In this document: positions 29,201-47,554 of the stretch, piece after piece
How the letters are laid out: each line of letters starts with the position of its first letter
How positions within the stretch are numbered: the first letter of the stretch is position 1
Assembly: GCA_963664825.1 (NCBI GenBank)
Contig: OY761614.1
Coordinates: 2,752,001 to 2,816,000, forward strand
DNA length: 64,000 nt
Reading direction: 5' to 3'
From: an uncultured Holophaga sp.
GTDB lineage: Bacteria; Acidobacteriota; Holophagae; Holophagales; Holophagaceae
Program-made: the position numbers and the translations under genes
The notes under the pieces: generated by a model
Databases searched by the model: none
What the model was told of the DNA's origin: nothing
Seen by the model: only the letters and a program-made list of their open reading frames with translations

Positions 29201-29217
29201 CTCACGGGTGCTCGACC

Positions 29218-30135
29218 ATGATCCGCCGCATTCTGTTTTCCGTGCTTGCCATCGCCTTCGCCTTTGCGCAGGAAGTTGCTCCACCAGTGCCCCCTGCTCC
29301 TTTGGCTCCTCCTGTGGTGGCGACGGGGGCTGCTCCAGTGATCACGACGGAAAAACCGGGCAGCAATCTCTCCATATTCCCTACGCGACTGGTGCTGGAG
29401 GGGCGTTCACGCTCCGAGGAGATCGTGCTCCGCAATTCTGGAAAGGCGGCGGCCACCTACCGGATCCTGTTCAAGGAAATGGAGATGAACGAGAACGGCG
29501 AGATTCAGGAACGTCCGAGGAAGGAGGGTGAGATCACGGCGGCCGATCTCATCCGCTTCAGCCCCCGGCAGGTCGAACTTGCTCCCGGCGAGACGCAGAC
29601 GGTGCGCATCCAAGTACGCAAGCCCGAAGGGTTGGTGGATGGGGAATACCGTTCCCATCTACTCTTCCAAGCCGTCCCGGTGGCAGAACCCCCGGCCCCC
29701 CTCGGAGGTGAGGTCGAAAGGGCGCTCTCCGTGAAGATCACCACCCTCCTGGGGATGTCCATCCCCATCATCCTTCGCCATGGCGAGACCCAAGGGAAGC
29801 TTGCGATCTCCGAATTGCGCTTCTGGAGGCCCGGTCCCAAGGTGACGCCGGGTGCTCCTCCTGTCCTGAGCCTCCGAATGACGCGGGAGGGCAACCGCAG
29901 CCTCTCCGGGGCCTTCACCGCCGTGGTGGAATCCGGGGGAAAACTCAAGAAGGGGACCCTCCTCTGGGAATTGCCGGTGGTTCCCATCTACACCAGCATG
30001 CCCTGGCGGAATGTCCATATGCCGATGTATCAAGGGAAGAACGGAGAACTCAACGGGGCTCGGGTGAAGATCACCTGCACACCCGTCGATTTCAAGGGGG
30101 CGCCGATCGTGGCCTACCTGGATATTCCGGCCTGA
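29218..30135 (+). CDS. Fimbrial chaperone-like periplasmic protein (PapD_N-like)
   Basis: IFPTRLVL, IRFSPRQVELAPGETQTVRI, GEYRSHLLF, SIPII. Confidence 0.8.
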   Translation: MIRRILFSVLAIAFAFAQEVAPPVPPAPLAPPVVATGAAPVITTEKPGSNLSIFPTRLVLEGRSRSEEIVLRNSGKAAATYRILFKEMEMNENGEIQERPRKEGEITAADLIRFSPRQVELAPGETQTVRIQVRKPEGLVDGEYRSHLLFQAVPVAEPPAPLGGEVERALSVKITTLLGMSIPIILRHGETQGKLAISELRFWRPGPKVTPGAPPVLSLRMTREGNRSLSGAFTAVVESGGKLKKGTLLWELPVVPIYTSMPWRNVHMPMYQGKNGELNGARVKITCTPVDFKGAPIVAYLDIPA

Positions 30136-30145
30136 TGCCTGCGGA

Positions 30146-33016
30146 ATGCCTTATCAACCCACACTCACGAGCCTAGCTTGCCTCCTGCTCGGTGCCTCCC
30201 TGGCGGCCCAGGTGCCCCCCGGGCACCTCGATCCAGCCGATGCCATTCTGTTGCAACCCTTCCTGGGGAAGATCCCCTTGGCGGATTCACTCAATGCCTT
30301 TCCCGCTCCCGGAGGCGCCATGGTGCCTCTTGGGGAGTTGTGCAGCATGCTCGGCTTCGGAATTCAGGTAGTTGCTGAGAAGGGCCGTGCCGAAGGCTTC
30401 TTTGTCTCACCCAAGCGCCGTTTCCTGCTCGATCTCAACGCGGGGGTAGCCGAAGTGGAGGGACGGCGCCTGCCTCTGGGTTCACTGCTGGCGGTCCGGG
30501 AAGGTCAGGAGATCTTCGTCGATGCCCGGTTGCTCGCACTCTGGTTCCCCTTGAAGGTGGTTGTGAATACCAAGGCCGCTGTCTTGCGGCTTACCAGCAC
30601 TGAAAAATTGCCTGTGGAGGCGGAATGGGAGCGGGAGGGGAAAGCTGGCTACCTCGCCCAGAATCCCGGGGGCGCGAGTGATAGCCCGGTGGGCACCTTC
30701 AAGGACTTCCCATACAGTTTCCTCGATATGCCCTTCGCGGATGTTTCCACATCTTGGTCCAAGAGCCAGCATGGAGCCTCCGGTCCCCCGAGCATTTCGA
30801 CCAATTTGGCCGGGGATTTTCTCTGGATGAGTGCCAATTTCTACGCCGCCCGGGACAACAACGGCCAGATCAAGAATACGAGTCTCTCCCTCTTCCGGGA
30901 GGATCCCAATGCAGCACTGCTGGGCCCCCTGCATGCCACGCATGTGGAACTGGGGAACCTCATGCGTTCTGCCTCCCTCGAAATAGCCGGGGATTTGCCT
31001 CGGGGGCGAGGCCTCCTGGTGGATAACTACCCCATGAATTACCGATCCAAGTTCGCCAGCCGCACCTTCCAGGGTTACCTGCAGGAGGGCTGGTCTGTGG
31101 AGCTTTACCAAAACAAGGCTTTGTTGGGCTACCAGCGTTCCAGGCCCGATGGGCGCTATGAGTTCCCCGATACTCCGCTCCGTTTCGGCCTGAACCAGTT
31201 CAAGCTGGTCTTCCATGGTCCTTTCGGCCAGATCCGCGAAGAAAGCTACCGGGTGGAGATCTCCAGCGATCAGCCTCCACCAGGGGCCTTCTATTACCGC
31301 CTAGCGGGTTCGAGACCTAGCTCGGTCGATCAGACCTCAGGGGGACAGCCCGGTGCAACCCTGCCTGAGTCCAGAATCAATAGCATGGCCGAGATGGAGT
31401 ATGGCCTCACCCCCTACTTGGCGGCCAACGCAGCGGTTTCCAAAATCGCGGATTCGAACGATGTGCTGCACACCTACGATGTGGTCGGGCTTCGCAGCCT
31501 CTTCTCGTATCTCTCCCTCCAGGGCAATGCCGCCCAGGATGTGGTCCAGGGCCGTGCCTCGGGCGTGGCTGCCCAGGGCATCCTTCGAACCGGGTATGAG
31601 TACTCCAGCCTGACGCTGGAACGCTCCGAATACCGACGAGGCTTCGAGCAGATTGGTTACCAGGTTTACGGCGCAACGCCTCAGCATCTGCGCTCCGTCA
31701 CCATGCTCCAGTGGGATGGCAGTTGGACCATGCGGAAAACGCCCATCAATCTGGCCTTTTCGAGGCGGGATCTTCGCTACGCCGAAGGGGGCGGAAGTAC
31801 CACCGATACTCTTCGTAGCACCCTCACTTTCCCCGCCTTCGTTGTGGCTCCTTCCTTGAGTCGAACGGTGAATCTGGGGTGGAACGGCACCACTAATCTG
31901 AATGGGAATGTCTACGTCAGCTTCCGAAAAGGCGAATACGATCTGCAAGGACAGATGAACGCCACGCATTCCCAAGGCAAGACGGAACTCAGTGGCTGGA
32001 GCGCCGAAGCCAACCGGACCCTGCCTTCGGGCCTAGCTTTTCGTCTGGGCATTGGAGGGCGAGATCTGAAACCTCAAAATGTGGAAATCAAAGGAAATCT
32101 CAGCAAGCAGACTGGGGCCTTCGCTTATGGCGTTGATCTCCAGTTCGCGAAGGCCTCCGGCTATTCCCTGGGCTTTCGCATCCAGGCCTCCTTTGGCCGG
32201 GAACCTCGCACGGGGAAATGGGCCATGGATGGCCGTTCCATGGCGGGTCAGGGAGCCGTCTCCCTGGTCGCCTTCAAGGACAATAATGGCAACAAGGTCC
32301 TGGATCCGGGAGAACCCGTGCTCCCAGAGACGCAGTTCAAGGTGGGCACGGCGGCCATCGAGAACGCCATCCAGGATTCGAAGGTCGTGTTCCGGCCCCA
32401 ACTCTCCCGAGGCCAGGACACGCTGATCCGGGTGAACGAATCCAGTCTGGAGGATTCCTCTTTCCAGTCCACTGTGAAGGCTTATCGCATTCTGCCCAGA
32501 TCCGGAAAGGTCATGCGCCTCGATTTCCCAATCACGGTGTTCGGCGAGATCAATGGCACGACTCGCATCCGCCGCACCCAAAAGCCTGAGGAATTCGGGG
32601 GCCTCGAACTCGAACTCCTCCGGGCCAATGGCCAGCGGGTGAAGCTCTTCCGCAGTGCCTACGATGGTTTCTTCGAACTACGAGATTTGCCCATTGGAGA
32701 CTATGTGCTCCGGGTGAGCTCCCAAGAAATTGAACGTTTAAAGATCCAGGAACCCCCCGCCAGGAAATTCCATATCACGAATGAGAAGAGTCTTTTCGAG
32801 GGGCAGGACTTCATCGTCGAGGCTCCACAGCCCGCTCCGGATCCAACCCCCGCTGCGATGCCAACACCAACGGTCTCAGCGGACCCAGCCTCCGCGCCGT
32901 CTGCCCCCAAAATCGTTCTCAATCCGGTTCCCGCTTCAGCAACCGATTCAAGACCACGTACAACCCCGATGCCAAGCCCGACACCGGATTCACCCGCACC
33001 CGGAGGAAAACCATGA
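30146..33016 (+). CDS. Usher-like outer membrane protein
   Basis: Signal peptide, beta-rich body, GWSVELYQN...GRYEF plug-like motif, FKDNNGN..LD.GE, SAYDGFFELRDLPIGDYVL. Confidence 0.7.
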   Translation: MPYQPTLTSLACLLLGASLAAQVPPGHLDPADAILLQPFLGKIPLADSLNAFPAPGGAMVPLGELCSMLGFGIQVVAEKGRAEGFFVSPKRRFLLDLNAGVAEVEGRRLPLGSLLAVREGQEIFVDARLLALWFPLKVVVNTKAAVLRLTSTEKLPVEAEWEREGKAGYLAQNPGGASDSPVGTFKDFPYSFLDMPFADVSTSWSKSQHGASGPPSISTNLAGDFLWMSANFYAARDNNGQIKNTSLSLFREDPNAALLGPLHATHVELGNLMRSASLEIAGDLPRGRGLLVDNYPMNYRSKFASRTFQGYLQEGWSVELYQNKALLGYQRSRPDGRYEFPDTPLRFGLNQFKLVFHGPFGQIREESYRVEISSDQPPPGAFYYRLAGSRPSSVDQTSGGQPGATLPESRINSMAEMEYGLTPYLAANAAVSKIADSNDVLHTYDVVGLRSLFSYLSLQGNAAQDVVQGRASGVAAQGILRTGYEYSSLTLERSEYRRGFEQIGYQVYGATPQHLRSVTMLQWDGSWTMRKTPINLAFSRRDLRYAEGGGSTTDTLRSTLTFPAFVVAPSLSRTVNLGWNGTTNLNGNVYVSFRKGEYDLQGQMNATHSQGKTELSGWSAEANRTLPSGLAFRLGIGGRDLKPQNVEIKGNLSKQTGAFAYGVDLQFAKASGYSLGFRIQASFGREPRTGKWAMDGRSMAGQGAVSLVAFKDNNGNKVLDPGEPVLPETQFKVGTAAIENAIQDSKVVFRPQLSRGQDTLIRVNESSLEDSSFQSTVKAYRILPRSGKVMRLDFPITVFGEINGTTRIRRTQKPEEFGGLELELLRANGQRVKLFRSAYDGFFELRDLPIGDYVLRVSSQEIERLKIQEPPARKFHITNEKSLFEGQDFIVEAPQPAPDPTPAAMPTPTVSADPASAPSAPKIVLNPVPASATDSRPRTTPMPSPTPDSPAPGGKP

Positions 33017-33942
33017 ACCGATCGCTTCTGTTCCGGATCATGTTCGGCGCACTGGCCTGTGCACCCGCATTCCCTCAGGCCAAGATGCTCCCACCCGAAA
33101 TTCAGATCATCCAGTCTATGAACTTTGCTGGGTTGCTGGTGAGCCCCTTGGGGGGTAGCATCACCCTGACTTCGGATGGTGCGCTCATCCCCGATGGTGA
33201 TGGCATCGTGCCAAGTTCCCAATCGACCTGCACCGAGGCTAGGTTCCGGCTCACCGGGCCTCCGGGGGCCACGTTCACCCTCCAGGTGGAACCCTCAACC
33301 CCCGTTCTCGTGGCTGCTGGGCGCTCTATTCGCCTGGCAGAATTTCACGCTTCTCTGCCATGGGCGCGAGGCACGGAGTTGCGAGGAACCTTCGATGCCA
33401 CAGGACAGGCCGAAGTTAAGCTCGGGGGCCGCCTCGATATACCCGCCGGAACCCCTCCTGGGCTCTATCGCGCGGCTCAGGTGAAGCTCCAACTCCAGGT
33501 TCCCGGCAGAGATGCGGCGAACCTGCCCTTCTTGATTTCTGCCCTGTTGCGGGCACCTTTATTCCTGACCTCCACAGGCACCTTGGATTTTGGAAGCATC
33601 ATCCCTGGCGACCAGATCGGGCGTTTCGATGTTTTGCCCTCAGGAGGCCATCAATCCCAGACCTCTGGACCGAGCCTATTCAGGGGTCTGCCTGCTCCTG
33701 CTTCTTTCCAACTCGATGGGCCCGTCGGCACGAGCTATTCCATTCAGCTGCCCAAGGGTGTTCAACTGCTGGGCCGCGGTCAATCACTTCGAGTTGAGAA
33801 CTTCACATGCAGCACGCCAATGAGCGGAGTCTTGCCTCCAGGTGGCCTCCGGTTCGGAGTCGGTGCCGGACTAGTCGTTCCTCCTGATCAGGTGCCAGGG
33901 GTTTATCGTAGTGTCTTTACGGTGACGGTGAATTACCTGTAA
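33013..33942 (+). CDS. Tandem DUF4402-like minor pilin/adhesin
   Basis: Two repeats, each with MNFA/LDFG, A.F.L.G and VG..L...PG.Y motifs; ends FTVTVNYL. Confidence 0.7.
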   Translation: MNRSLLFRIMFGALACAPAFPQAKMLPPEIQIIQSMNFAGLLVSPLGGSITLTSDGALIPDGDGIVPSSQSTCTEARFRLTGPPGATFTLQVEPSTPVLVAAGRSIRLAEFHASLPWARGTELRGTFDATGQAEVKLGGRLDIPAGTPPGLYRAAQVKLQLQVPGRDAANLPFLISALLRAPLFLTSTGTLDFGSIIPGDQIGRFDVLPSGGHQSQTSGPSLFRGLPAPASFQLDGPVGTSYSIQLPKGVQLLGRGQSLRVENFTCSTPMSGVLPPGGLRFGVGAGLVVPPDQVPGVYRSVFTVTVNYL

Positions 33943-33979
33943 TAAGATCAGGGGCCTCCACGGAGGCCCCTGATCTTAT
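33942..33979. terminator. Bidirectional terminator
   Basis: Perfect 18-bp inverted repeat ATAAGATCAGGGGCCTCC-AC-GGAGGCCCCTGATCTTAT between convergent genes. Confidence 0.8.
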
Positions 33980-34005
33980 GGGGAACGATTCCAAATTGGG
34001 AACAG

Positions 34006-34587
34006 TTACTGGGTCGTGAGGGTGCCAATCTTGAGGTCTGGCAAGGGGCCGATTGTATTGGTGGTGCCGTGGCTCAGAATTTGAGATTTGGTCAGATCCG
34101 GGGTCAGGGTGATGACCGAGCCGATGGCTTGACCGGTTTCCAGATCCAGGGCGATCTGGAGCAGGGGGCCGTTCAGAGTCTTGGTGGAACCGACACCGCG
34201 CTCGGTCACCACTACTTGCAGGCAGCCGCCGCTGAGTTTGCCTTTCACGATGGCGTTGCTGGCGAAGACGTTGCCATTGGTCACCAGCGCGGTGCCAGAG
34301 ACATTGCCCCAGGTCGCCTTGGTCGTGTCCAGGTTCAGCGTAAGCACGACTCCGCTGCCCGTGACAGGGGTGACTGGGCCATAGAGGTCCAACACCAGGT
34401 GAGTGCCGGAAATACTGTTCTTCTTTAAACAGAAAGACGTAGCCGGGACGCCCGCAGGGTCGGTGTAGGCAATCACCGTAGCGATTGGCGTGGGAGGAGG
34501 TGTCGACTTGCTGCTGCCACCTCCGCAGGCTAGGAGATACAGCAAGGAGATCGAAGGAAAGGCGAGGATGCGAAGGCGCTGGGTCAT
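34006..34587 (-). CDS. Lipoprotein, possibly cohesin-like beta sandwich
   Basis: Lipobox LLAC followed by a GGGS/PT linker; all-beta pattern. Confidence 0.6.
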   Translation of the reverse strand: MTQRLRILAFPSISLLYLLACGGGSSKSTPPPTPIATVIAYTDPAGVPATSFCLKKNSISGTHLVLDLYGPVTPVTGSGVVLTLNLDTTKATWGNVSGTALVTNGNVFASNAIVKGKLSGGCLQVVVTERGVGSTKTLNGPLLQIALDLETGQAIGSVITLTPDLTKSQILSHGTTNTIGPLPDLKIGTLTTQ

Positions 34588-34598
34588 GGGTTTCTCGA

Positions 34599-37466
34599 TC
34601 AGAAGCCGAGGCTCTTGAGTAGCAGGTTGAGATCGGCTTCGCCGACGGTGGCATCTCCATTCAGGCGAGAACGGCTGGTCGTTGTGCCCCAGTCCAGCGC
34701 CAGGGTGAGGATATCCCTGAGATCGAAGACCGCATCCCCATTCACATCCAGCGTCTTGACTGTGAGGACCGAGGTGGCGGTCTTGGTGGGGTATAGAGAA
34801 TTGGTGAGGGTCACTGTGGCGCTGGTATCGGTGAGTTGATTGGCAAAGGGGGGGGCCGTGTATGTGTTACTGAGTCCTGAGTCGGCACTCAGTGAACCCG
34901 GGCCTGAAAGGCTCCATCGGATGGTTCCGTTGCTGGTGGTGCCCGCGAGGGCCAAGGCTGCACCGTAAACCAGGGTGGCGGTGGGATGATCCACAGAGAG
35001 GGCTATTGTGGTCGGCTCCACCAGGGTGAGCGTGGCCGTGCCTGGCACATTGGGAGTCTCCACGGGTGTGGCCGTCAGGGTATAGATCCCGGCCGTGTTG
35101 CTGGTCGTCAGTGTGGTTGCCACGCCACTGGCGGTCTGGGGAGCATTGAAACTGCCCCCGCCAGCGCTGATGGTCCAGTTGACCCTGTTATCACTCTGGA
35201 AGTTGGAAAGGGTCGCAGTGAAGGGCAGCAATGCGCCGATGAGGGCCGTGGTGCTCGCGGGCAGGATGGTGGCCGTGGTGTTTGTGGTCCAGGAAACGTT
35301 ATCCACCCAAGCGCCATCGTTATCGGGAGCGCTAGCAAGATCCTTGGCGTAAGTCCAACGAAGCAAATGCGAACCTGCAGGAATGTTAAAGGTCTGCTGG
35401 GCAAAGTCGATGGTACCGCTGATTTTTCCGATCAATCCTCCTCCATCGACATTTGCGCTCTTTCCATCCACGTTAAAGGTGAGAAAGTCATAGTCGAGTT
35501 CGGAGTTTACTTTCCAGTAGAACGTCAGGATGCCCGGTCCTGTGACTCGTGTCTGGAGGTAGGTGCGGCTGCTATTCGGAATGACCGCGCTCCGGGCGCA
35601 ACTGCCGCCCAGATGTGAGGTGCTGGTGGTGGCGGTCCAGGGGCCCAGACTCGTGAACGTAAGATTGGCATTATCCAGCACCGCACGATCGAAGACGGGC
35701 AGCGCAATAGCTAGCGGGGCACTGGAATCGGACCAAGCGCTCTCCATGGAAAGACCATTCAGAACCGTCACCCGAGCATAAAGGGGAACGCCATCCTGCA
35801 CGCCCAGATCGGTGAGAGTCTTGGTCAGCGCATTGAATATGCGGCCATTGAAAATATCGCAGCCACCCAGCGATGTGCCCACCTGAAGGTGGTAGCCGGA
35901 GATGCCGGAATCGAGATCTACCGCATTCCCTTGGTTCCAGGTGAAGGTCATGGTGTCTTGCACGGTGGAAGCCACGGGCGCACTGGGGCGTCCCGTTGGC
36001 GGCGTCGGGTCGATGATCTGGGAAACATCGAAGGTCATGGTTGCGCCCGGATCCGAGATATTCTTTACGCCCATCCCCGTTGAAGCGCCGTCGTAGCGCA
36101 TGCTGTTGGGCAGGCTTGCGGGGCCAAAGGTCTTGCCGTTGATCCAGTAATCCCCGGCATTGACGTCAGCGGACAATGTTTCGATTTCCTCCAGGCCATC
36201 GGCCTCCATGAGACGTAGCAGCTTGTGGGCCGTGTAGGAGTTGTCGAATTGATAATCTGTGCCCGCGCTATTCAACCGCGAATCCACATGCCAGATCAGC
36301 AGGCCATCCGCAGGGTATTCCCTACTGGGATCGTTATCGTTCTGCACGCGCTGGCGGTTCTGGACCATGAAGAATTCTCCGAAGCTGCCGCCCGGATTGG
36401 TATCCATGATGACGGCGGCCTCGGGGGTGCTTCCTGAGGCCTGCAATGTCACACCTGGGGCGCCAGCGGTATAGACCGTGGGGGTGATCCAGTCTAATAA
36501 CCATTTGCTGAAGCAGTTATGGTCTCCCCAGTTGCCATGCATCATGTCCAGGCTTCCCACACCTCCCCCAGGGCCGACGGCGGTGTCGTAATCGTAGTAG
36601 TCGGGTAGGCCCAAGGCATGGCCCGTCTCATGGATGAGTACCCAGGGATCAAAATTTGGTGCCTTCCGGGTGGGGTAGCCCGCGTTGGAGACCCACTGCC
36701 AGACGTATTTCCCGAGAGTCTTTCCATTCAGCACGGGAGATGGGGTTTCGCTCCAGGCTGTCTGGTAGGCCCACCAGAAGTTGGCCCACCCGTTGTCGGG
36801 GCCTGTCCAGAGCACGGCGAAGAAATCAATCACGCCATCTCCGTTGTTGTCGTAATGGCTAAAGTCGTGTCCCACCTGAGCCTGCAAAGCCTCCCGGATG
36901 AGGTTCTCGCGCTGGGCATCCGTGGGATTGGTGCCCATGCTGGCACGGGTGTAGGAGGGCCGGTAGTAGGCCAGTACGTTTCCCGTCAGGGTGAGCAGAC
37001 CGTAGGAGGACCGGTAGTAGAAGCTCTTCAGGCTCTCGTAGGGAGCCGCCTGCACGCCATCGCCATCTCCGAAGATCCGCGAATCAATAGTCGCCGCCGT
37101 ATTGGCGGGGTCCGCGGGGTAGTCACTGAAATCGATCAGGAGCACGAACATCTTCGGCGTGCCCTTGGTGGGCATGCCTCGCCAGCTGCTGGGAGGGGCC
37201 GACAGGATCGAGGCTTGGTTGGGTATTTGCACGCCCTGGCTGGTCGCGAGGCTGCGCAAGCGCCGCTCCGCATCCAGAACCAGCTGGGGATCCACCCGAT
37301 GGTTCCCGATCCGTTCGGCCCGTTCCAGCCGTTTCTTCCATGTGCCATCGGCCTTGTACTGCCGGACCATCTCGGGGGTGGGGGGTGGCATGGCGGGCAG
37401 CCGCTGACCCAGGAGAACCATGAGCATTACGCCCACACTGAATAGGAATGACTTGGTGAGTTCCAC
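34599..37466 (-). CDS. M6 family (immune inhibitor A-like) metalloprotease with Fn3/Ig-like modules and dockerin-like C-terminus
   Basis: VLLIDFSD, HYDNNGDGVID, HETGHALGLPDYY, SLDMM, FSKWLLDW, GLLIWHVD, LMEADG; GTG start with GGAG RBS and signal peptide. Confidence 0.88.
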   Translation of the reverse strand: MELTKSFLFSVGVMLMVLLGQRLPAMPPPTPEMVRQYKADGTWKKRLERAERIGNHRVDPQLVLDAERRLRSLATSQGVQIPNQASILSAPPSSWRGMPTKGTPKMFVLLIDFSDYPADPANTAATIDSRIFGDGDGVQAAPYESLKSFYYRSSYGLLTLTGNVLAYYRPSYTRASMGTNPTDAQRENLIREALQAQVGHDFSHYDNNGDGVIDFFAVLWTGPDNGWANFWWAYQTAWSETPSPVLNGKTLGKYVWQWVSNAGYPTRKAPNFDPWVLIHETGHALGLPDYYDYDTAVGPGGGVGSLDMMHGNWGDHNCFSKWLLDWITPTVYTAGAPGVTLQASGSTPEAAVIMDTNPGGSFGEFFMVQNRQRVQNDNDPSREYPADGLLIWHVDSRLNSAGTDYQFDNSYTAHKLLRLMEADGLEEIETLSADVNAGDYWINGKTFGPASLPNSMRYDGASTGMGVKNISDPGATMTFDVSQIIDPTPPTGRPSAPVASTVQDTMTFTWNQGNAVDLDSGISGYHLQVGTSLGGCDIFNGRIFNALTKTLTDLGVQDGVPLYARVTVLNGLSMESAWSDSSAPLAIALPVFDRAVLDNANLTFTSLGPWTATTSTSHLGGSCARSAVIPNSSRTYLQTRVTGPGILTFYWKVNSELDYDFLTFNVDGKSANVDGGGLIGKISGTIDFAQQTFNIPAGSHLLRWTYAKDLASAPDNDGAWVDNVSWTTNTTATILPASTTALIGALLPFTATLSNFQSDNRVNWTISAGGGSFNAPQTASGVATTLTTSNTAGIYTLTATPVETPNVPGTATLTLVEPTTIALSVDHPTATLVYGAALALAGTTSNGTIRWSLSGPGSLSADSGLSNTYTAPPFANQLTDTSATVTLTNSLYPTKTATSVLTVKTLDVNGDAVFDLRDILTLALDWGTTTSRSRLNGDATVGEADLNLLLKSLGF

Positions 37467-38013
37467 GGAGCATCTCCGAGAGGCTTGGGCAAGTGGGAAA
37501 CCAGGGGAGCGGAATGGGGTCGAGGGCCATTTCTGGGCATCCTCGGAGGGAATTTGCTTTTGCCCAGGGAACGATTTGGGCGACCCACGGGATTGGATGC
37601 CGACCCTAAGCATATGTGAAAAACCTAATCGTAAATACGAATTTCGACTGCCTAATTCCTAACTCAAGGAAGGATCTTGAAGGCCTTTCCCGTGGATCAG
37701 GATCATCCTCCGGATCGAAGCACCGTCTCGTGATCTAGGGCCCGGAGTCTTGTGTTCTTCAAGTCATTCACCGACACGGCCTTTCGGGGATCTTTTCCGC
37801 AATGGTCGCGGATAACGGCGCGGAGCTGGGGATAAGGTGGTGCGATTTCAAGTCGGAAGGACACTGCACAGTTGCGAGTGCAGTGCCATCCCCGCGACCA
37901 TCGGCTAGCGGCAGGTTCCAGGTAGGGCACGGAGGGCAGCGCCGAATGAGCCCCGCCTCTACCGTCAAAATGCGGCAAATGCAGCCCTAGTCAAACCGGC
38001 TACATAGGCATCG

Positions 38014-38050: not shown

Positions 38051-38099
38051 TGGAGCCAACTATAGGATTCGAACCTACGACCTTCTGATTACGAATCAG
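38051..38099 (-). repeat. att site: 49-bp copy of the tRNA-Thr 3' end
   Basis: Matches 45963-46011 with a single mismatch at 38084. Confidence 0.95.
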
Positions 38100-38260: not shown

Positions 38261-39562
38261 ATGAGAAAGTCCGACCAAGAACTGACCACGACCATCTGCG
38301 AACGGACCAAGGCGACGGCCAAAAAACAATCCCTCTGGGATTCGAAAACCACCGGTCTTTGCCTGGTCATCACACCGATGAGGGAAGAGAAACGGGGCGG
38401 GAAGACCGTGACCATCGGCGGGGCCAAGACGTGGTATTTCGTGGCGCGCCGTGCTGATAAGCAGCTCTGGGTGAGGATTGGGGGCTTTGTCCCGAGGGGT
38501 GAGGGCTGGACGCTGGCGAGAGCCAGAACAGAAGCGGATCGCCTGCGCCTCATCCATGACCAGGGGCATGACGTGAAGGCGGCGAAGGCGAAGGAACGCA
38601 CACTTCCCACGGTGGCCAAGCTTGTTGAGGAATATAAAGAGGAGCTGCTTGGCAAGCTCAAGCCCAAGTCCCAGAAATGCGCAGAGGGATACCTGACACG
38701 CGAAATCCTGTCTCGCTTCAAGAATCGGTTGGTGGCTGAAATCGGCGTGGCAGACCTTCAGAAGATGCATGATGAGATTGCCGGGGCAGGGAAGCCATAC
38801 GCCGCCAATCGTGTGATAGCCGCTATGAGCAGGCTCTTGAACGTCGCGGAGAAGAAGGGTTGGCGTTCGATGGGGACGAACCCCACGACGCACGTCGAAC
38901 GAAGTCCTGAAACGGCGAGAAAGACGGTTCTTGATGTTGAGGGCTACGCTGCCACGGAGGTGGCCCTGGTGAAGCTTTGTGCCAAACCAGGGAAGCTTGA
39001 AGGACGCCGCCCATTCCGTCCCGCCGCCGCTGATGCGATTCGCTTCCTTGCCCTGACAGGGCTACGGCTGAATGAAGCTCTGCACCTGACATGGGCCGAT
39101 GTGGATCTGGTGAAGGGTTTCATGGTCATCCGTGACCACAAGACGGTCAAACAGCATGGGGAACGAACCCTTCCGCTCAACTCTCACGCCCTGGCCATCG
39201 TGAAGGCGCGAGAGGGGAAGAGCGTTAGCCCTTACATCTTCTGGGGCAAGCCCAGCGCCAAACAGGTGTTCAAGCCCTTCGTGGGGCTCCAACATGCCTG
39301 GGAACGTGTTCGAGAAGAGGCGAAGCTAGGCGATCTTCGGCTTCACGACTTCCGCAGGAGCTTCAACAGCGTGGCCGCAGAGCTGGGATACCCCGCCGCT
39401 GTGTTTGATACCCTTCTGGGCCATGCTCTGCCTGGAGTCCAGCAGGTCTACACCCGCTTGAATGTGGCTGGCATCCTCGCCACTGCCTCTCAGGACGTGG
39501 GCGACTGGATCAAGGCCGCGATGGATGGGCAGGCGCCGAAGCTGGGAGAGAAGCGGGTCTGA
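38261..39562 (+). CDS. int: Tyrosine recombinase/integrase with N-terminal arm-binding domain
   Basis: LWD....GL, TLARAR, TGLRLNE, HKT, HDFRR, LLGH, QVY: catalytic set intact. Confidence 0.95.
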   Translation: MRKSDQELTTTICERTKATAKKQSLWDSKTTGLCLVITPMREEKRGGKTVTIGGAKTWYFVARRADKQLWVRIGGFVPRGEGWTLARARTEADRLRLIHDQGHDVKAAKAKERTLPTVAKLVEEYKEELLGKLKPKSQKCAEGYLTREILSRFKNRLVAEIGVADLQKMHDEIAGAGKPYAANRVIAAMSRLLNVAEKKGWRSMGTNPTTHVERSPETARKTVLDVEGYAATEVALVKLCAKPGKLEGRRPFRPAAADAIRFLALTGLRLNEALHLTWADVDLVKGFMVIRDHKTVKQHGERTLPLNSHALAIVKAREGKSVSPYIFWGKPSAKQVFKPFVGLQHAWERVREEAKLGDLRLHDFRRSFNSVAAELGYPAAVFDTLLGHALPGVQQVYTRLNVAGILATASQDVGDWIKAAMDGQAPKLGEKRV

Positions 39563-40597: not shown

Positions 40598-41023
40598 ATG
40601 ACGACCACGAATAGCAAGACCACGCCGAAGGCCTGCCCGGAATTGAACACCATCACCCAAGGGGCCAGAAAGGGACTGCCCCTCTCCCGTCCTTGGGATG
40701 GGATCGGGATCAATACCTTCAGCCGAACCCATAGGAAGGTTCCAGCGCCTCAGACCTGCATCATTCCCGAACTCTGGGAAGCCGGAGAGGAACACTCGGT
40801 GATCTTGGCAGGTGACCGCGGTTCCCTTCCAGGGTGGCTCTTCGTCCCTGGTGACACGCTGCTTGACGGCTCTCCCGCCGTGCTTCTACTCCCGCGCCGA
40901 GCGACCCGAGCAACCCAGCGTGAAGCCCTCTTTGCGATCCGAGATTTCTACCACGCTCAGAACCTCATGGAGCGAAGACGCCAGAAAGCGGAACTGCTCG
41001 ACGTTGAAGTTGACCCGGGCTGA
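40598..41023 (+). CDS. Hypothetical protein (mobile element)
   Basis: ORF with GGGGGA RBS, co-oriented within the element operon. Confidence 0.5.
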   Translation: MTTTNSKTTPKACPELNTITQGARKGLPLSRPWDGIGINTFSRTHRKVPAPQTCIIPELWEAGEEHSVILAGDRGSLPGWLFVPGDTLLDGSPAVLLLPRRATRATQREALFAIRDFYHAQNLMERRRQKAELLDVEVDPG

Positions 41024-41072
41024 GAAGCACACGCATTCAATCGAAATCAATCATCCAATCGGAGAGATACCA

Positions 41073-41369
41073 ATGAAGACCATCACCGCTTACCGCTGCG
41101 AACACTGTGCCCCTGGACACGGCAGGCCCTATGCCTCCGCAAGCTCCTGCAAGGCCCATGAGGCCCGGTGTCATGACAACCCGGCCTCCCACTCCTGCGC
41201 TACCTGCCGGTTTAAGGCACAGCGTGATGTCGGTGCCCCGGCCGCATTCCAAAAGGAATACCCGGGCGCGACGACGCTGGAATACTTCTGCCAGGCCAAG
41301 AAGCCCGGAAAGTGCCTCACCACGCTTTGCCCGTCCTGGAAGCTGCGAGTGGATGAGGTCTCGGAATGA
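41073..41369 (+). CDS. Cys/His-rich putative zinc-binding protein
   Basis: YRCEHC...C..HE..C..NP...CATC; GGAG RBS; stop overlaps the next ATG. Confidence 0.65.
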   Translation: MKTITAYRCEHCAPGHGRPYASASSCKAHEARCHDNPASHSCATCRFKAQRDVGAPAAFQKEYPGATTLEYFCQAKKPGKCLTTLCPSWKLRVDEVSE

Positions 41370-42310
41370 GGGACCTTCCAATCAGTTCAATCCGCATGGA
41401 TGGAGGCACTCAAACCCGCGCCGCCTTGGATTCAACGACCTGTGCTGAATACGCCGATGCGATGAAGGCCGGGGCCATCTTCCCGCCCGTCACCGTGTTC
41501 CATGACGGCACCGATTACTGGCTTGCCGACGGCTTCCATCGTGTGGAAGGGGCCCGCCTAGCAGGGCTCCAGGACATCCCCGCCGAGATCCGGCAGGGAA
41601 CCCAGCGCGATGCCCGTCTCTTCGCCGTGGGGGCCAATCAGACCCATGGCTTGCGCCGGACCAATGCCGACAAGCGCCGCGCCGCCTCCGCCCTCCTCGA
41701 TGACCCCGAGTGGAGCCAATGGTCAGACCGGGAGATTGCCCGCCGATGCGGAGTCTCCAATCAATTTGTCTCAAACATGCGATCCGAGCGGGTGTCAACC
41801 GTTGACACCCCGAGGGTGTCATCCAATGACACTCCCGAGGTGGCCACGGTTGAAGCCTGGATCCCTGCCCCCAACTTTGGGGCGCATGGAAAGTGCGCGG
41901 TGGATGGGGTGCGATGGGACGCCTTCATCATGCCCTCAGAATCTTTCGAGTCATCGTCCCGTAGGAATGTGGATGGAAACGACTACCTGTATGTCGTGGT
42001 GACGAAGATTGCCCCCAGCGGAGCAGGTGAAGTCATGGGCACGAAGAGGCCGATCCATAGGAACTTCGTCACTCGAGGGCTTAAAGAAGAGTCCTTCCCC
42101 CTCGCGGAGGCTGCATGGGATCAATTCCCCGTGTCCGACGAACCCGATGGTGAGGAATTGACCTTCGAGAAGCGCTGGTCATGGCCTCACCTGGTTTTTG
42201 AAACCCATCGGGATTGGATGGATCAAGAGCGTTGGTGGACGCTACCCCATGACGACCCGGCCTATCTGGACGCAATCAAGGCTCGAACGCTTTCAGGAGC
42301 GCCGGAATGA
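41366..42310 (+). CDS. ParB N-terminal-like domain + HTH protein
   Basis: GGTQTR, FPPVTVF, LADGFHRV, AN..HGL.RT.ADKR, WSDREIARRCGVS. Confidence 0.8.
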   Translation: MRDLPISSIRMDGGTQTRAALDSTTCAEYADAMKAGAIFPPVTVFHDGTDYWLADGFHRVEGARLAGLQDIPAEIRQGTQRDARLFAVGANQTHGLRRTNADKRRAASALLDDPEWSQWSDREIARRCGVSNQFVSNMRSERVSTVDTPRVSSNDTPEVATVEAWIPAPNFGAHGKCAVDGVRWDAFIMPSESFESSSRRNVDGNDYLYVVVTKIAPSGAGEVMGTKRPIHRNFVTRGLKEESFPLAEAAWDQFPVSDEPDGEELTFEKRWSWPHLVFETHRDWMDQERWWTLPHDDPAYLDAIKARTLSGAPE

Positions 42311-42519
42311 GCGGATCCAGACTTCTTCTTCAGCCCGCCGTCTGGCCACACCTCGCGCTCAATCCCGAGCCCTTCGGCACCTCCATGGACCCGGATTCCA
42401 TCGAACGCTGGTATCAGGAGATCCTGCACATGGAGCCCGAACCCGCCCCCTGTCACCTCCCGAAGCCGCAACCCGTTCGCCGCTCGGGAGGTGGCCACTA
42501 CTTTCAGCGGAGGCGGTGA
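42307..42519 (+). CDS. Hypothetical protein
   Basis: Translationally coupled on both sides (ATGA, TGATG). Confidence 0.45.
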   Translation: MSGSRLLLQPAVWPHLALNPEPFGTSMDPDSIERWYQEILHMEPEPAPCHLPKPQPVRRSGGGHYFQRRR

Positions 42520-43598
42520 TGGCGAGACGACCTAGCTTCCAGTTTTACCCTGGCGATTACGCAGCCAATACCAACTTGCGCCGCTGCACCCATGAGGAGA
42601 AGGGGGTCAACATGGACTTCCTTTGTCTCGCACATGACAGCGATGAATACGGGATTGTGCGCTGGCCCTTGAAGGAACTGGCCCAGGCCATCGGCTGCAA
42701 GGCATCAATCCTTGTCGCTCTCGTGAACAAGAACGTCATCAAGGGAGCCGACGAAGGGACGATGTGTGATGTCTTCGTGTTCACCCCTTGCCATGCGGGG
42801 CAGCGTGGGCTTCCTGTGGAGCTGATACCAGAGCAGCCGGGACCACTCTGGTATTCCAGTCGCATGGTGCGAGACGAATACGTGAGGCAGAACCGAGGGA
42901 AGGCCAGCCGGTTTATCAGTGAAGGTGGACAACCCCCCGATGACTCACCCAACCCGTCACCAATGCCCCCACCAATGCCCCCCTTTGGAGACGGCTCTTC
43001 ATCTTCATCTTCATCTTCATCTTCATCTTTTAATCCTTTGCTTCGCTCGGATTCTGCCCCCAGCCAGGGAGGGGAAAATCATGGGTCGAACCCCGATCCC
43101 GTGCTCCTGGCTCTTCTCTGGTTTGCGAAGGTGGCAGACGCCCGCCGTCAAGTTGAGAGCCTGGACCGTTCCAAAGTGGTCCAGGCCGCATTCGCCCTTG
43201 CGGATCGCGGGGATGAGGTATGGCCTGAAGTGTTCTTGAACTCAGTCACAGTGACACTTCCCGGTAATACCGCCGTTGAAATTACAGCGCGCTACCAGAA
43301 GGCCGTAGCCGGTGAACAGGTCGCCATTCTCGAACAGGCTGAAGATGCCCTTGCGGAAGTGAAGACCATCATTGGTTGTGCCGAACTCTCGTTATCGGTT
43401 GCGTTCAATCGGGTGGGACTCGGAAGCGACTGGAAGCAGGTTCGAACCGCCGACATCGTGAAGGCTTGGCCCCAGGCCACGAAGGCTTCGTTCATCGCCG
43501 CCAATGGCGAGGAAGCCTATACCGCGCTCTTGCAGGGCAGGCTTGGCCTTGAAGCCGCATTGGGCCTGTTCCGGCCCGGACTCGTGAAGGAGAACTAG
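42519..43598 (+). CDS. Phage-type replication initiator (YdaU/DUF1376-like N-terminus)
   Basis: RPSFQFYPGDY...EKG..MD.LC, YSSRMVRD, Pro/Ser linker. Confidence 0.7.
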   Translation: MARRPSFQFYPGDYAANTNLRRCTHEEKGVNMDFLCLAHDSDEYGIVRWPLKELAQAIGCKASILVALVNKNVIKGADEGTMCDVFVFTPCHAGQRGLPVELIPEQPGPLWYSSRMVRDEYVRQNRGKASRFISEGGQPPDDSPNPSPMPPPMPPFGDGSSSSSSSSSSSFNPLLRSDSAPSQGGENHGSNPDPVLLALLWFAKVADARRQVESLDRSKVVQAAFALADRGDEVWPEVFLNSVTVTLPGNTAVEITARYQKAVAGEQVAILEQAEDALAEVKTIIGCAELSLSVAFNRVGLGSDWKQVRTADIVKAWPQATKASFIAANGEEAYTALLQGRLGLEAALGLFRPGLVKEN

Positions 43599-44185: not shown

Positions 44186-44635
44186 GTGACCGCCCCCAAG
44201 TATCAAGTGCAAGACGTTGCTAAGTATTTCCTCGCTTTGGTTGATCGTGAGGTGGACGCAATCGACCACCTCAAGCTTCAGAAACTGTGCTATTACGCCC
44301 AAGGCTTTCACCTTGCCTTGACTGATGCTCCTCTTTTCCCAGAGGCCATCGAGGCTTGGCCTCATGGTCCCGTGTGCCCCGATCTCTATCATCAATTCAA
44401 AGAATATGGGCGGGGGCCAATCCCGGAGGATCCTGATTTTGACACGTCTCTCTTTGATGACACCGCTAAGTCAATCATCGAGGAGGTTTACGATGTGTAT
44501 GGGCAGTACACCGGGTGGAAGCTCCGGAACATCACCCACGCAGAGCCTACCTGGAAGTCTGCAATTGCTCGGGATAACAAAACAATTACCTTCGAAGAGA
44601 TGGCGACATTTTTTAAGACCCAAATTGAAGCGTAA
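44186..44635 (+). CDS. Panacea (DUF4065/SocA-like) antitoxin
   Basis: VAKYFL, LKLQKLCYYAQG, IEAWPHGPV, LRNITHAEPTW; GGAGG RBS. Confidence 0.92.
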   Translation: MTAPKYQVQDVAKYFLALVDREVDAIDHLKLQKLCYYAQGFHLALTDAPLFPEAIEAWPHGPVCPDLYHQFKEYGRGPIPEDPDFDTSLFDDTAKSIIEEVYDVYGQYTGWKLRNITHAEPTWKSAIARDNKTITFEEMATFFKTQIEA

Positions 44636-45042
44636 TGAACCAAATTAAGCGCCCCAAATCCAACGACGGTCAACGGATCAAAAGCCCTACCATAGGAGTC
44701 TCATCGGACGATCAAAAGCCTGCGTTTTCTCTTGAGCACATGGTCTCGGGTCGGTGCCTCAGAGACTGTATAAAAGACGAAAAAGCCGCTTTTGCAATGG
44801 CCCTTCTGGAAAGAAGTTCAAGCACATGGAAGGAGTTGCGCATGGCACCCCGTCACGGGTTGGGGTACGAGCGCATTGAGAAAAATGCAATAAAGTGTGG
44901 GATCCCCTCGGTGGTCCCAGACGACACAGACCTCATCGCCTTTCGTTTTGCAGGGAACGCGCCGATGGTCGGCTATAGGAAAGAACGGACGTTTTTCATT
45001 CTATGGCTGGACCGTGACTTTACGCTCTACGACCACGAATAG
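44635..45042 (+). CDS. Putative toxin partner of the Panacea antitoxin (possibly RelE-like fold)
   Basis: TAATG coupling to the DUF4065 gene; RHGLGYE, IAFRF...MVGYR...FFILWLD...LYDH pattern. Confidence 0.65.
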   Translation: MNQIKRPKSNDGQRIKSPTIGVSSDDQKPAFSLEHMVSGRCLRDCIKDEKAAFAMALLERSSSTWKELRMAPRHGLGYERIEKNAIKCGIPSVVPDDTDLIAFRFAGNAPMVGYRKERTFFILWLDRDFTLYDHE

Positions 45043-45083
45043 GAAGTGATGGGGGCGGATGAAATTCCGGTCACCAATAGGCA

Positions 45084-45108
45084 GAGGCCCCCAGTGATGG
45101 GGGCTTTG
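45084..45108 (+). terminator. Hairpin after the TA operon
   Basis: AGAGGCCCCCA-GTGA-TGGGGGCTTT. Confidence 0.55.
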
Positions 45109-45278
45109 TCGTGCTGGGAGTTCTCCCCAAATTCGGAAGAAACCTTGCCCCTGGAACTTCTGCTCATTTTTGAGAAAAAGCCCATGCGCGCGCGGGGACG
45201 GCAAAGGACGGATAATCCGGCCTTTGAACCCGCACCGCCGTGGTGTTCCCAAATGTGGGATATTCCCACATTTGATCC

Positions 45279-45583
45279 GTGAGCCCCCTCGCCTATGCGT
45301 TCTCCCGGCAGGCGGATCGTCGGAATACCACCGATGCCGACATCATGCGGGCGGTGGGGGTCATCGATAACCGGAAGAGCCGGACGGACAACCTGAAGCA
45401 CGGCCAAGAAACCCCCGATACGCCATGTGGCGTATCGGGAAACCCCGCACCACCATTGGATCTACAAAACCAGGCATCGGCCAAAAAACCCCGCTCCAGC
45501 TCCCAGACCGCCAAGATTATCGGGGTATCCGAGCGCAAGGTGGAGCGGGTTCGGACAATCGCGGATCGTGCGCTATTTGAAGC
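45279..45583 (+). pseudogene. Fragment of a ParB/KorB-like HTH gene that runs into the repeat array
   Basis: AYA..RQ.DRRN.T..., TAKIIGVSERKVERVRTI HTH; no N-terminal domain; frame continues without a stop into repeat 1. Confidence 0.55.
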
Positions 45584-45856
45584 CCTTCGCCCGCGCGCGC
45601 GGGGATGGTCCGACCTGCATCGCGCCCCGCTACGGATCCTGGTTCCTTCGCCCGCGCGCGCGGGGATGGTCCGTCTGAGCCCACCCGGGAAGCAACCCCA
45701 GGACCCCTTCGCCCGCGCGCGCGGGGATGGTCCCCAGGAGTTCCATCATTTGAAATGACGGAACCCCTCCTCTCCCCTCGCCCGCGGGGATAGGGGGATA
45801 ACATCCGTAGTTTGGATGTCATCGGTAGGCCTCTCTCCGCGCGCGGGGATGCTGGG
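45584..45856 (+). CRISPR. Cas-less type I-E-like CRISPR mini-array: 3 conserved + 2 degenerate repeats, 4 spacers
   Basis: 29-nt repeat CCTTCGCCCGCGCGCGCGGGGATGGTCC(G/C) at 45584, 45645, 45706 (61-nt period, 32-nt unique spacers); degenerate copies at 45769 and 45830. Confidence 0.9.
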
Positions 45857-45917
45857 TGCTCACCGAATCCGGGGACCTCAAAACCAGCCTGCCTGAAAGT
45901 GGAATGGAAGTGGAACC

Positions 45918-45948
45918 AAAACAAAACAGCCACCCGGGCGGTGGCTGT
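45918..45948 (-). terminator. Element-supplied intrinsic terminator for tRNA-Thr
   Basis: ACAGCCACC-CGGGC-GGTGGCTGT with a T-tract on the minus strand. Confidence 0.7.
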
Positions 45949-45962
45949 AAGTGTTGTAATGA

Positions 45963-46038
45963 TGGAGCCAACTATAGGATTCGAACCTACGACCTGCTGA
46001 TTACGAATCAGCTGCTCTACCAACTGAGCTAAGTTGGC
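45963..46038 (-). tRNA. tRNA-Thr (anticodon CGT)
   Basis: GCCAACTTAGCTCAGTTGGTAGAGCAGCTGATTCGTAATCAGCAGGTCGTAGGTTCGAATCCTATAGTTGGCTCCA: 76-nt cloverleaf with encoded CCA. Confidence 0.97.
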
Positions 46039-46225
46039 CCGGACGAGCCAGTGTGCCAGAAGAGTCACCCGGGCTCAAGGGGTGAGTGATCGGGGCCTCG
46101 AAGGGGGCTCGAGAGGAATGCGCTCTCAGAGAGGGCTCCTTGTGACCTCTCGTCACGAAGTCTATACGTGCCTGTCACGAGGTGGTGCTAGGCTTCGTCC
46201 CATCACCACTTCAATGGGGAGTCCC

Positions 46226-47554
46226 ATGGTCGCATCCGCCAAGAAGGTCTTCGTCCTGGACACCAATGTCCTGCTTCATGATCCCCAGGCGATCTTTCAC
46301 TTCCAGGAGCACGACATCGTGATCCCCATCGTCGTGATCGAGGAAATCGATACCTTCAAGAAGGACCAGACCGAGATCGGACGGAACGCCCGCTCCGTTT
46401 CCCGGCAGTTGGACAAACTGAGGGCCCTCGGCACCCTCAGTCAGGGTGTGACCCTGGAAGGGGGTGGGATCCTGAAGGTGGATGTAACGCCCTATCGCCA
46501 GGATCTGGGTTTCTCCACCCTGGACAAGCACAAGGCGGATAACCAGATCTTGGCCTGCGCCATGGCCCTGCTCAAGGAACGCAAGGAGAAGGTGATACTG
46601 GTCAGCAAGGATACGAACGTGCGCATCAAGGCCGATGCTGCGGGGCTGTTGGCCGATGACTACAACACGGACCGGGTGGAGATGGACGGGCTCTATACGG
46701 GCACGGCCCAGTGGGATGTGGAAGGGGTTCAGATCGATCTCGTCTATGAAGGTGGTTTGGTGCCCGATGAGGCACACCCCCTCCATCCCAATCAGTTCGT
46801 CACGCTGGTGGATCGCGCCAATGACAGCCATACGGCCGTGGGGCGCTTCTACGCCGCCGATAACCGCATCCATCCCCTCAAGCGCACGGAACAGCCGCCC
46901 TGGGGCATCAAGGCCCGGAATCGGGAGCAGCAGTTCGCCCTGGAACTCCTCCTGGATGATTCGATCCAGGTCGTCACCCTGCTGGGCAAGGCAGGCACCG
47001 GCAAGACTCTGCTCGCCATCGCCGCGGGCCTGCAACAAGTGGTGGACGACGAACGCTACAACAAGCTCCTGGTGAGCCGTCCCGTGATGCCCATGGGCCG
47101 CGACCTGGGCTTCCTCCCCGGGGATATTGAGGAGAAGCTCCGGCCCTACATGCAGCCCATCTACGACAACCTGGATTTCATCGTGTCGGCCAATACCGAG
47201 ATGAGGCGGCGTTCCACCATGACCGTGGGCCAGCTGGAGGAAGGCGGCTATCTCAGCGTCGAGCCCCTGACCTATATCCGCGGCCGCAGCATCCCGAATC
47301 AGTATCTCATCGTAGACGAGGCCCAGAACCTGACGCCCCATGAGATCAAGACCATCCTCACCCGGGCCGGGGAGGGCACGAAGATCGTGCTCACCGGTGA
47401 CCCTCACCAGATCGACAACCCCTATGTGGATGCCAGCACCAACGGCCTCAGCTACCTAGCCGAGCACTTCAAACACCTAGCCCTCTCGGGCCATGTGACC
47501 CTGACCAAGGGCGAACGCTCCCCCATGGCCGAACTGGCCAGCAATCTCCTCTGA
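46226..47554 (+). CDS. PIN-PhoH family protein (PhoH2/YlaK-like)
   Basis: VLDTNVLLHDP PIN domain, GKAGTGKT, YIRGRS, DEAQN, GDPHQID, ERS. Confidence 0.92.
   Translation: MVASAKKVFVLDTNVLLHDPQAIFHFQEHDIVIPIVVIEEIDTFKKDQTEIGRNARSVSRQLDKLRALGTLSQGVTLEGGGILKVDVTPYRQDLGFSTLDKHKADNQILACAMALLKERKEKVILVSKDTNVRIKADAAGLLADDYNTDRVEMDGLYTGTAQWDVEGVQIDLVYEGGLVPDEAHPLHPNQFVTLVDRANDSHTAVGRFYAADNRIHPLKRTEQPPWGIKARNREQQFALELLLDDSIQVVTLLGKAGTGKTLLAIAAGLQQVVDDERYNKLLVSRPVMPMGRDLGFLPGDIEEKLRPYMQPIYDNLDFIVSANTEMRRRSTMTVGQLEEGGYLSVEPLTYIRGRSIPNQYLIVDEAQNLTPHEIKTILTRAGEGTKIVLTGDPHQIDNPYVDASTNGLSYLAEHFKHLALSGHVTLTKGERSPMAELASNLL

Follow-up and report, generated by a model that had tools for sequence, protein, structure and literature searches.

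The Sulfolobales viruses SPV1 and SPV2 are said to carry mini-arrays with which host Cas proteins are turned against related viruses. Mini-arrays of this kind, as well as mimics of CRISPR repeats, are already known from mobile elements. Those of viruses and other mobile elements treated in PMC11656645 have one or two spacers, no cas genes, a mobile carrier and a subtype that matches that of the host, and in the viral cases described there the repeats are identical to the host's and the spacers are directed against related viruses. Racr solitary repeats, as presented in PMC10651486, are mimics of host-subtype repeats which are found on mobile elements and have variant bases in the hairpin. The Cracr arrays of phages are mobile I-E arrays of two or three spacers with imperfect repeats, and the feature given there as their own is the possession of pseudo-spacers of 21-24 nt with at least nine PAM-proximal matches to a cas or CreT promoter (10.1101/2024.10.29.618823). 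Self-targeting spacers flanked by degenerate repeats have been described for chromosomal arrays in the presence of cas genes (Stern et al. 2010, as cited in PMC3338789). Finally, off-target integration by host Cas1-Cas2 can add spacers away from the host's own array, giving "neo-CRISPR" arrays (Nivala et al. 2018; 10.1101/148544), and the repeats of such arrays are described as exact duplicates of local sequence (10.1101/148544).

The locus reported here is a cas-less type I-E mini-array from an uncultured Holophaga species. It was analysed together with its surroundings in a stretch of 64,000 nucleotides, which is referred to as the window. With the mini-arrays of viruses and other mobile elements it shares the small number of spacers, the lack of cas genes, the mobile carrier and the subtype of the host. 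It differs from them in its repeat, which is identical to that of the host at 23 of 29 positions and has a bulged stem base, in its sole identified target, which is the host chromosome, and in its carrier, an integrative element of 8 kb among whose genes no structural gene of a phage was recognised. Like a Racr, it presents a variant of the host-subtype repeat hairpin on a mobile element and by analogy could sequester Cas6 or Cas7, but it is not solitary: two decayed repeats follow three intact ones, and the spacers have the canonical length of 32 nt. Like the Cracr arrays it is a short, mobile I-E array with imperfect repeats; however, its spacers are 32 nt in length and none has a match of the Cracr kind to the host cas locus, and a regulator of the Cracr/CreR type is not supported. 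The perfect self-match, the presence of cas genes in the host and the repeat defect recall the cases of Stern et al. (2010), although here the self-spacer lies in a separate, element-borne array and not in a chromosomal one. In common with neo-CRISPR arrays, it would have received its spacers from host Cas1-Cas2 away from the host's own array, but its repeat is of bona fide I-E type and is followed by older, decayed units in register, so that it was not created de novo. Searches of the openly accessible literature (supplements aside) gave no description of an I-E mini-array that is carried by an element and perfectly targets its own host.

Host type I-E system

The host genome (G000) has one I-E operon, which is complete and is located at G000 461-469 kb, 2.3 Mb from the mini-array. 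Eight open ORFs were found at this operon, encoding Cas3, Cse1, Cse2, Cas7, Cas5, Cas6e, Cas1e and Cas2e, and they are followed by the main array of 109 repeats and 108 spacers, with every spacer being 32 nt. A preliminary description of the mini-array, made from the window alone, had recommended looking in the host for an I-E locus with a repeat of matching type; this complete operon is such a locus, the host repeat CCGTTCCCCGCACACGCGGGGATGATCCG being identical to the mini-array repeat at 23 of 29 positions. Genome-wide searches gave one Cas1, one Cas6e and one Cas3, solely at G000 461-469 kb, and no match to the type IV protein Csf2. The missing Csf2 and the single Cas1 and Cas3 were taken to rule out that the mini-array belongs to a second system, be it of type IV or another type.

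With regard to the PAM of the host, no reliable protospacers were obtained for its 108 spacers or for 443 spacers from the arrays of relatives, and two leader-proximal host spacers gave no matches among viral contigs. None of the 443 spacers of relatives matches the element that carries the mini-array. Just past the trailer of the main array (L068 6740-6792) a G+C-rich dispersed repeat of ~50 nt was observed, which also occurs in tandem copies at G000 856064-856344 and at many contig ends in relatives of the family.

Carrier element

The mini-array is carried by a 7.9-kb integrative element that lies between 49-nt duplications of the 3' half of tRNA-Thr. The array is situated at the right end of this element, 107 nt from attR. 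The features of the element and its right boundary, in window coordinates, are as follows.

38051-38099, unstranded: attL; the 3' half of tRNA-Thr in a displaced copy, with 48/49 identity to attR
38261-39562, plus strand: tyrosine integrase, 433 aa, PF00589 (1.9e-18) with an Arm-DNA-binding domain
41366-42310, plus strand: ParB N-terminal-like protein, phrog_1033 (3.6e-26); Pfam ParB_N at 22.8 bits, below cut-off
42198-43598, plus strand: 466-aa ORF, no family by Pfam, PHROGs or NCBIfam
44186-44635, plus strand: SocA/Panacea antitoxin, PF13274 (1.6e-22), phrog_1281
44635-45042, plus strand: 135-aa partner of the antitoxin, phrog_8366, overlapping the SocA/Panacea gene
45279-45758, plus strand: small ORF without its own stop, running through repeats 1-3; no family matched
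45926-45948, minus strand: terminator-like hairpin and T-run downstream of tRNA-Thr, supplied by the element
45963-46038, minus strand: tRNA-Thr(CGT), of which the 3' half (45963-46011) is attR

The placing of the array within an integrated element, as in the preliminary description, is borne out by the 49-nt att repeats on either side and by the integrase. The element is also cas-less, as had been stated, with no Cas family detected among its ORFs by Pfam, PHROGs and NCBIfam (Pfam was applied to 14 ORFs, among them the 12 of the element, PHROGs to 10 and NCBIfam to 10). Its G+C content is 0.52-0.61, compared to mostly 0.62-0.71 elsewhere in the window. A low G+C content (0.56-0.61) was also observed to the left of attL, at about 27000-38000, across a gene resembling that of an M6 peptidase, and suggests a further island beside the element. 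The left flank of the tRNA-Thr is not conserved in congeners. In four species of the genus (L105-L109), ~2.2 kb was observed between tRNA-Thr and a PhoH/PIN gene, and in the present genome the two are adjacent (window 45963-46240).

A 2.5-kb module of the element (window 40606-43114), which comprises a 185-aa ORF, the ParB-like gene and the first half of the 466-aa gene, has a second copy at G000 2524837-2527333 with 98.5% identity. This second copy is found in a putative third element near tRNA-Ser(GGA), from which the array is absent, indicating that the array is accessory cargo and not a part of the module. The 466-aa protein has relatives in 2 of 132 genomes of the family, their loci ending 1.5 kb downstream, too early to reveal an array, and no viral locus was found for it.

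The small ORF upstream of the array has one database relative, a protein of 108 aa that is 70% identical over 90 aligned residues and ends about where the array begins. Among 156 other genomes of the class, two gave weak relatives of the small upstream protein, the loci of which contain no repeats, and 400 genomes of the phylum gave none. The translation of the ORF has a helix-turn-helix look, and its product is possibly a DNA-binding protein. The stretch 44900-46100 yielded no sigma-70-like promoter and the ORF reads through repeats 1-3, which makes co-transcription the likeliest source of array expression, and the array is probably transcribed together with this ORF. An inverted repeat of 13 pairs with two perfect arms of 12 nt was also observed within the small ORF, upstream of the array (45412-45441); it has a terminator-like score on the minus strand and could be an operator.

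Structure of the array

The 29-nt repeat, CCTTCGCCCGCGCGCGCGGGGATGGTCCG, is identical at 45584-45612 and 45645-45673, while at 45706-45734 its final base is C. The start-to-start distances of these three intact repeats are 61 and 61 nt. The units of the array, in window coordinates, are as follows.

45584-45612, plus strand: repeat 1, leader-proximal, last base G; covariance model 35.8 bits, E 5.6e-9
45613-45644, plus strand: spacer 1, 32 nt; no significant match in any collection searched
45645-45673, plus strand: repeat 2, last base G; covariance model 33.3 bits, E 3.5e-8
45674-45705, plus strand: spacer 2, 32 nt; equal to host chromosome G000 1700705-1700736 (minus strand), with an AGG PAM
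45706-45734, plus strand: repeat 3, last base C; covariance model 34.4 bits, E 1.6e-8
45735-45768, plus strand: hairpin ("spacer 3") directly 3' of the last intact repeat; -13.1 kcal/mol, z -4.08
45769-45797, plus strand: decayed unit 1, 69% identity; covariance model 9.4 bits, E 1.8 (not significant)
45798-45827, plus strand: hairpin 2 ("spacer 4"), between the decayed units; fold z -2.35
about 45828-45856, plus strand: decayed unit 2; no match by the covariance model

Repeat 3 is probably the oldest of the intact repeats. The preliminary description had delimited the two ordinary spacers exactly as here (45613-45644 and 45674-45705, 32 nt each) and had reported a decay of the array in the 3' direction, with palindromic third and fourth spacers. 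Two decayed units were indeed found in register, and the stretches termed "spacers" 3 and 4 fold as hairpins (z -4.08 and -2.35), unlike spacers 1 and 2, for which folding gave no structure. The motif GCGGGGAT has been kept in both of the decayed units at no more than 2 nt from the positions predicted by the period, and the chance of its occurring in register in both, calculated from its genome-wide frequency, is ~7e-8.

A 24-nt core of the repeat, with up to 3 mismatches allowed, was found in the 3.47-Mb genome at these three sites only, and a scan for repeats of at least 26 nt with a period of 50-75 gave two period-61 loci outside the main array, one of which is the mini-array. The mini-array is neither a chance pattern nor a dispersed repeat. 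The findings named beforehand as speaking against the earlier reading included a REP-like element scattered over the genome, of which the confinement of the core to the three array sites is the opposite, and the lack of an I-E system in the host, which has a complete one. No array was reported by TRF at the mini-array locus. Rfam gave only tRNA above the gathering score, with no CRISPR-repeat family in the region of this mini-array or of the second one described below, and a loose regular expression for solitary I-E-like repeats gave noise only across the genome. Wherever it is covered, the array sequence is identical, with no variants, in contigs of four public runs from two studies.

Repeat class and stem base

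A covariance model was constructed from 13 native I-E repeats, namely that of the host, those of six relatives and those of six actinomycete arrays sharing a 22-nt core. The three intact repeats matched this model with 33.3-35.8 bits (E 3.5e-8 to 5.6e-9, in 82 kb). Taken with the architecture of 29 + 32 nt and the 61-nt period, this match supports the earlier identification of the locus as a genuine I-E-type mini-array. The 8-nt 3' handle that had also been claimed, ATGGTCCG, is correct as the 3' end of the repeat, but in the crRNA this end becomes the 5' handle. The 80 nt upstream of the mini-array gave no alignment with the host leader.

The covariance model fits the mini-array repeats only when the G at position 6 is treated as an insertion in the stem. 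The occurrence of this G in all three intact repeats, with a bulge or mismatch at the stem base, had been pointed out in the preliminary description, and RNAfold likewise leaves the G unpaired or bulged. By RNAfold, the host repeat forms a 6-bp stem and the mini-array repeat a 5-bp stem with the bulged G, the hairpin of the latter still being stable at -13.3 kcal/mol. What is absent from the mini-array repeats is the closing C-G pair of positions 6 and 21, located beside the Cas6e cut. Position 6 is C in all 13 repeats of the alignment, including those of the host and its six relatives, and in 180/180 native repeats that share the 22-nt core, taken from a collection of 185,579 species genomes. 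The exact variant repeat gave no matches in viral contigs, metagenome contigs or 60 relatives.

Origin of the spacers

Spacer 2 matches the genome at 32 of 32 positions at one other place, G000 1700705-1700736 on the minus strand. The target consists of the last bases and stop codon of ahpC (peroxiredoxin) and of the left arm and loop of a hairpin between ahpC and ahpD, the gene after the hairpin belonging to the AhpD family (E 4e-54; core domain above cut-off). The neighbouring genes encode iPGM, aspartate carbamoyltransferase (pyrB) and a chemoreceptor, which places the target in the core chromosome. With up to 3 mismatches allowed, the target was found in none of 60 relatives, including eight species of the genus, and this indicates that spacer 2 was taken from the present lineage.

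Read in spacer orientation, the target has AGG at its 5' side, and with the G of this motif the match reaches into the final repeat base. Such a flank, with the G continuing into the repeat, is a signature of I-E acquisition. The last repeat base in I-E systems is described as PAM-derived (PMC3338789), which is consistent with repeats 1 and 2 ending in G and with repeat 3, which precedes a hairpin and not a spacer, ending in C. In E. coli, AGG is given as an interfering PAM and as being among the commonest non-AAG PAMs of naive adaptation (PMC6568314). Within the cas locus (G000 456-470 kb), no mini-array spacer has a seed-plus-PAM match in the promoter region, and the best matches of the spacers are of 8-10 nt, lie in coding sequence and have non-PAM flanks. 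Outside the main array itself, the genome contains no match to any of its 108 spacers (the best agrees at 23/25 bases), compared to one of the two spacers in the mini-array, a contrast for which post hoc arithmetic gives 2/110 = 0.018.

For spacer 1, no significant match was obtained in 50,697 phage records (best E 3) or in 72,556 plasmids (best E 0.2), and there was no match in viral contigs, metagenome contigs or the 60 relatives. The comparison with phage and plasmid databases that had been advised in the preliminary description thus left this spacer unmatched. The suggestion made there that the array targets competing or helper elements was not supported, as the sole identifiable target is the core chromosome of the host (spacer 2, 32/32, AGG). 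An exact match of spacer 1 over 17 nt (19/32 overall) was observed at G000 1694881-1694897, 5.8 kb from the spacer-2 target, and a 22/32 match with AGG occurs in a host ORF which by eye has a GAF/HD-GYP look. Both of these partial matches were put down to chance, as matches of 17 nt were also obtained with several of the 108 host spacers and the motif concerned is frequent as a word in coding sequence.

A second mini-array

The other period-61 locus outside the main array is located at G000 1873469-1873620 (L100 11469-11620) and has three identical repeats and two spacers, again with no cas genes. It is carried by a 9.1-kb element (L100 4542-13667) which is bounded by a 51-nt repeat of tRNA-Arg(TCT) and contains an integrase and a RepB-primase/DUF3631 protein. 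The two array-bearing elements are unrelated to each other. Only the 5' half of the second repeat is I-E-like; it has no hairpin and fails the covariance model. This array ends in an 11-bp hairpin (z -4.57), has an AT-rich, leader-like region upstream, and its spacers have no other match in the genome. It looks like off-target "neo-CRISPR" growth, a picture that it fits better than the tRNA-Thr mini-array does. Together the two elements make up ~0.5% of the genome. That both period-61 mini-arrays are found in this fraction is not random and is the main argument against a purely accidental origin.

Function of the mini-array

The explanation that we prefer, with a probability of about 0.45, is that the mini-array is dead with respect to interference but is still fed in trans by host Cas1-Cas2. 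It probably collects spacers without being able to direct cutting. It is a genuine I-E array, originally of at least five units, which is cargo at the right end of the 7.9-kb tRNA-Thr element and is probably transcribed by read-through from the small upstream gene. The Cas1-Cas2 of the host I-E system would use the first repeat as an integration site in trans, and spacer 2 would have been added first, from the host chromosome beside AGG, with spacer 1 following later. The extra or bulged G at the stem base, beside the Cas6e cut, would result in poor processing or loading, and no interference-competent Cascade would be formed. With poor crRNAs, the perfect self-target would be harmless and spacers would be gathered without selection. 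The array would then have no present role, or at most one of incidental titration of Cas proteins. Acquisition of spacers in trans by host Cas1-Cas2 has reportedly been seen in the type IV-A3 arrays of plasmids.

The perfect self-target beside an intact I-E system argues against interference-competent crRNAs, as with a functional crRNA and a plausible PAM it would be lethal. Its toleration could possibly be due to array RNAs that are unfit, to a host system that is silent or inhibited, or to AGG not being a licensing PAM here. The mini-array has a self-spacer in one of two cases and the main array in none of 108, a difference which suggests that selection is relaxed on the mini-array specifically, and the bulged G beside the Cas6e cut is the obvious candidate for its cause. 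Poor processing by Cas6e is described as the result of a change of one base in a repeat-like hairpin of a phage I-E array (10.1101/2024.10.29.618823). Counting against a dead array are the strong hairpins in which both mini-arrays end after the last repeat (z -4.08 and -4.57), which hint at function, and AGG, which may not be a licensing PAM in this host. The stable hairpin of -13.3 kcal/mol was likewise counted against a defect of the repeat, and if the host system is silent or inhibited, the toleration of spacer 2 would say nothing about the repeat.

A rather unlikely alternative, related to the decoy crRNAs that the preliminary description had also proposed, is that the bulged repeats are RNA decoys similar to Racrs, namely selected mimics which would bind Cas6e and Cas7 unproductively, blunt the host I-E system and so shield the element, with both spacers being incidental insertions by host Cas1-Cas2. 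Inhibition of I-E, I-F, I-C and V-A systems by repeat mimics that are located in mobile elements and match the subtype of the host is documented (PMC10651486). A decoy would be in keeping with a subtype that is the same as that of the host, with a repeat 23/29 identical to the host's, with the variant stem base common to all three copies and with the toleration of the self-target, and two unrelated elements of the genome bear such arrays, each with a terminal hairpin. The array also adjoins a small gene that possibly encodes a DNA-binding protein. Anti-CRISPR loci often adjoin a small gene for a protein of this type. Racrs are, however, defined as solitary repeats, whereas three intact and two decayed repeats are present here, and the repeat of the second element, which has no I-E hairpin and fails the covariance model, means that mimicry cannot explain both arrays. 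In addition, no anti-CRISPR family was detected in either element with general family libraries, and the variant repeat has no matches in viral contigs, metagenome contigs or the 60 relatives.

We consider it improbable that this is a working mini-array for competition between elements, the main proposal of the preliminary description, in which the crRNAs would be loaded by host Cascade and spacer 1 would serve to keep out a rival or helper element. Spacer 2 would then be tolerated owing either to AGG not being licensing or to the system being off in the integrated state. That viral mini-arrays of one or two spacers employ host Cas proteins against related viruses is established (PMC11656645), and the canonical architecture of the present array, the recent look of its acquisition and the complete host I-E system would all suit such a role. 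The repeats differ from those of the host, unlike in the viral mini-arrays described there, and they have a bulged stem base that is absent from native arrays (180/180 with C). The self-target of spacer 2 is perfect, and its PAM is one with which interference occurs in the E. coli model. Spacer 1 has no match in phages, plasmids (best E 0.2), viral and metagenome contigs or the 60 relatives; the databases are poor for this lineage and the unmatched spacer 1 is therefore weak evidence.

It is very doubtful that spacer 2 is itself the payload, by which the element would program host Cascade-Cas3 against the ahpC-ahpD locus. Such a deliberate self-match, equally doubtful, would supply a crRNA that turns Cascade-Cas3 on this locus and is checked by the bulged repeat or by an unrecognised inhibitor. 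Variants of this explanation are an action conditional on induction, an addiction device with an element-encoded inhibitor, and a Cascade roadblock that tunes ahpD. The match is perfect, has a PAM and falls at a unique site in a peroxide-defence operon, the interference genes of the host are intact, and the array has an operon-like position behind genes of the element. On the other hand, the crRNA and the ahpCD mRNA agree in sense, and so the crRNA would pair with the template strand. Pairing with the template strand gives weak roadblocks in I-E systems. A full match would also recruit Cas3 instead of repressing, no seed-plus-PAM match to the cas promoter region was found, unlike in regulators of the CreR or Cracr type, and none of the 60 relatives searched yielded the target. 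Accidental uptake is the simplest reading of the self-spacer. If the self-match were deliberate, and were unleashed on induction or loss of the element, the array would constitute an element-owned CRISPR device for addiction or host killing.

That the locus is not CRISPR at all, and consists of a chance repeat, iterons or a coding repeat, is scarcely credible, for although ORF 45279-45758 continues through the repeats and TRF reports no array, the period of 61 is not divisible by 3, the covariance-model E is ~1e-8, the boundaries of spacer 2 are exactly those of an acquired spacer of 32 nt, and the 108-aa relative of the ORF stops near the array start.

On the preferred explanation, that of an interference-dead array fed in trans, the locus would be a natural instance of what resembles adaptation in trans, with the host I-E system acting on an array borne by an element. 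Tolerated self-targets beside intact CRISPR systems led to the discovery of CRISPR inhibitors, and in the present case, where an intact I-E system tolerates a perfect self-target with a good PAM, either the bulged repeat or a protein of the element is a candidate. Should the repeat variant alone disarm the crRNA, it would represent a simple natural off-switch for I-E guide processing. The two unrelated elements with their hairpin-ended 61-nt mini-arrays may also offer a natural view of the birth and decay of arrays. A 63-nt unit repeated three times in tandem was also observed upstream of the tRNA-Arg region at which the second of these elements is located (L100 1982-2170).
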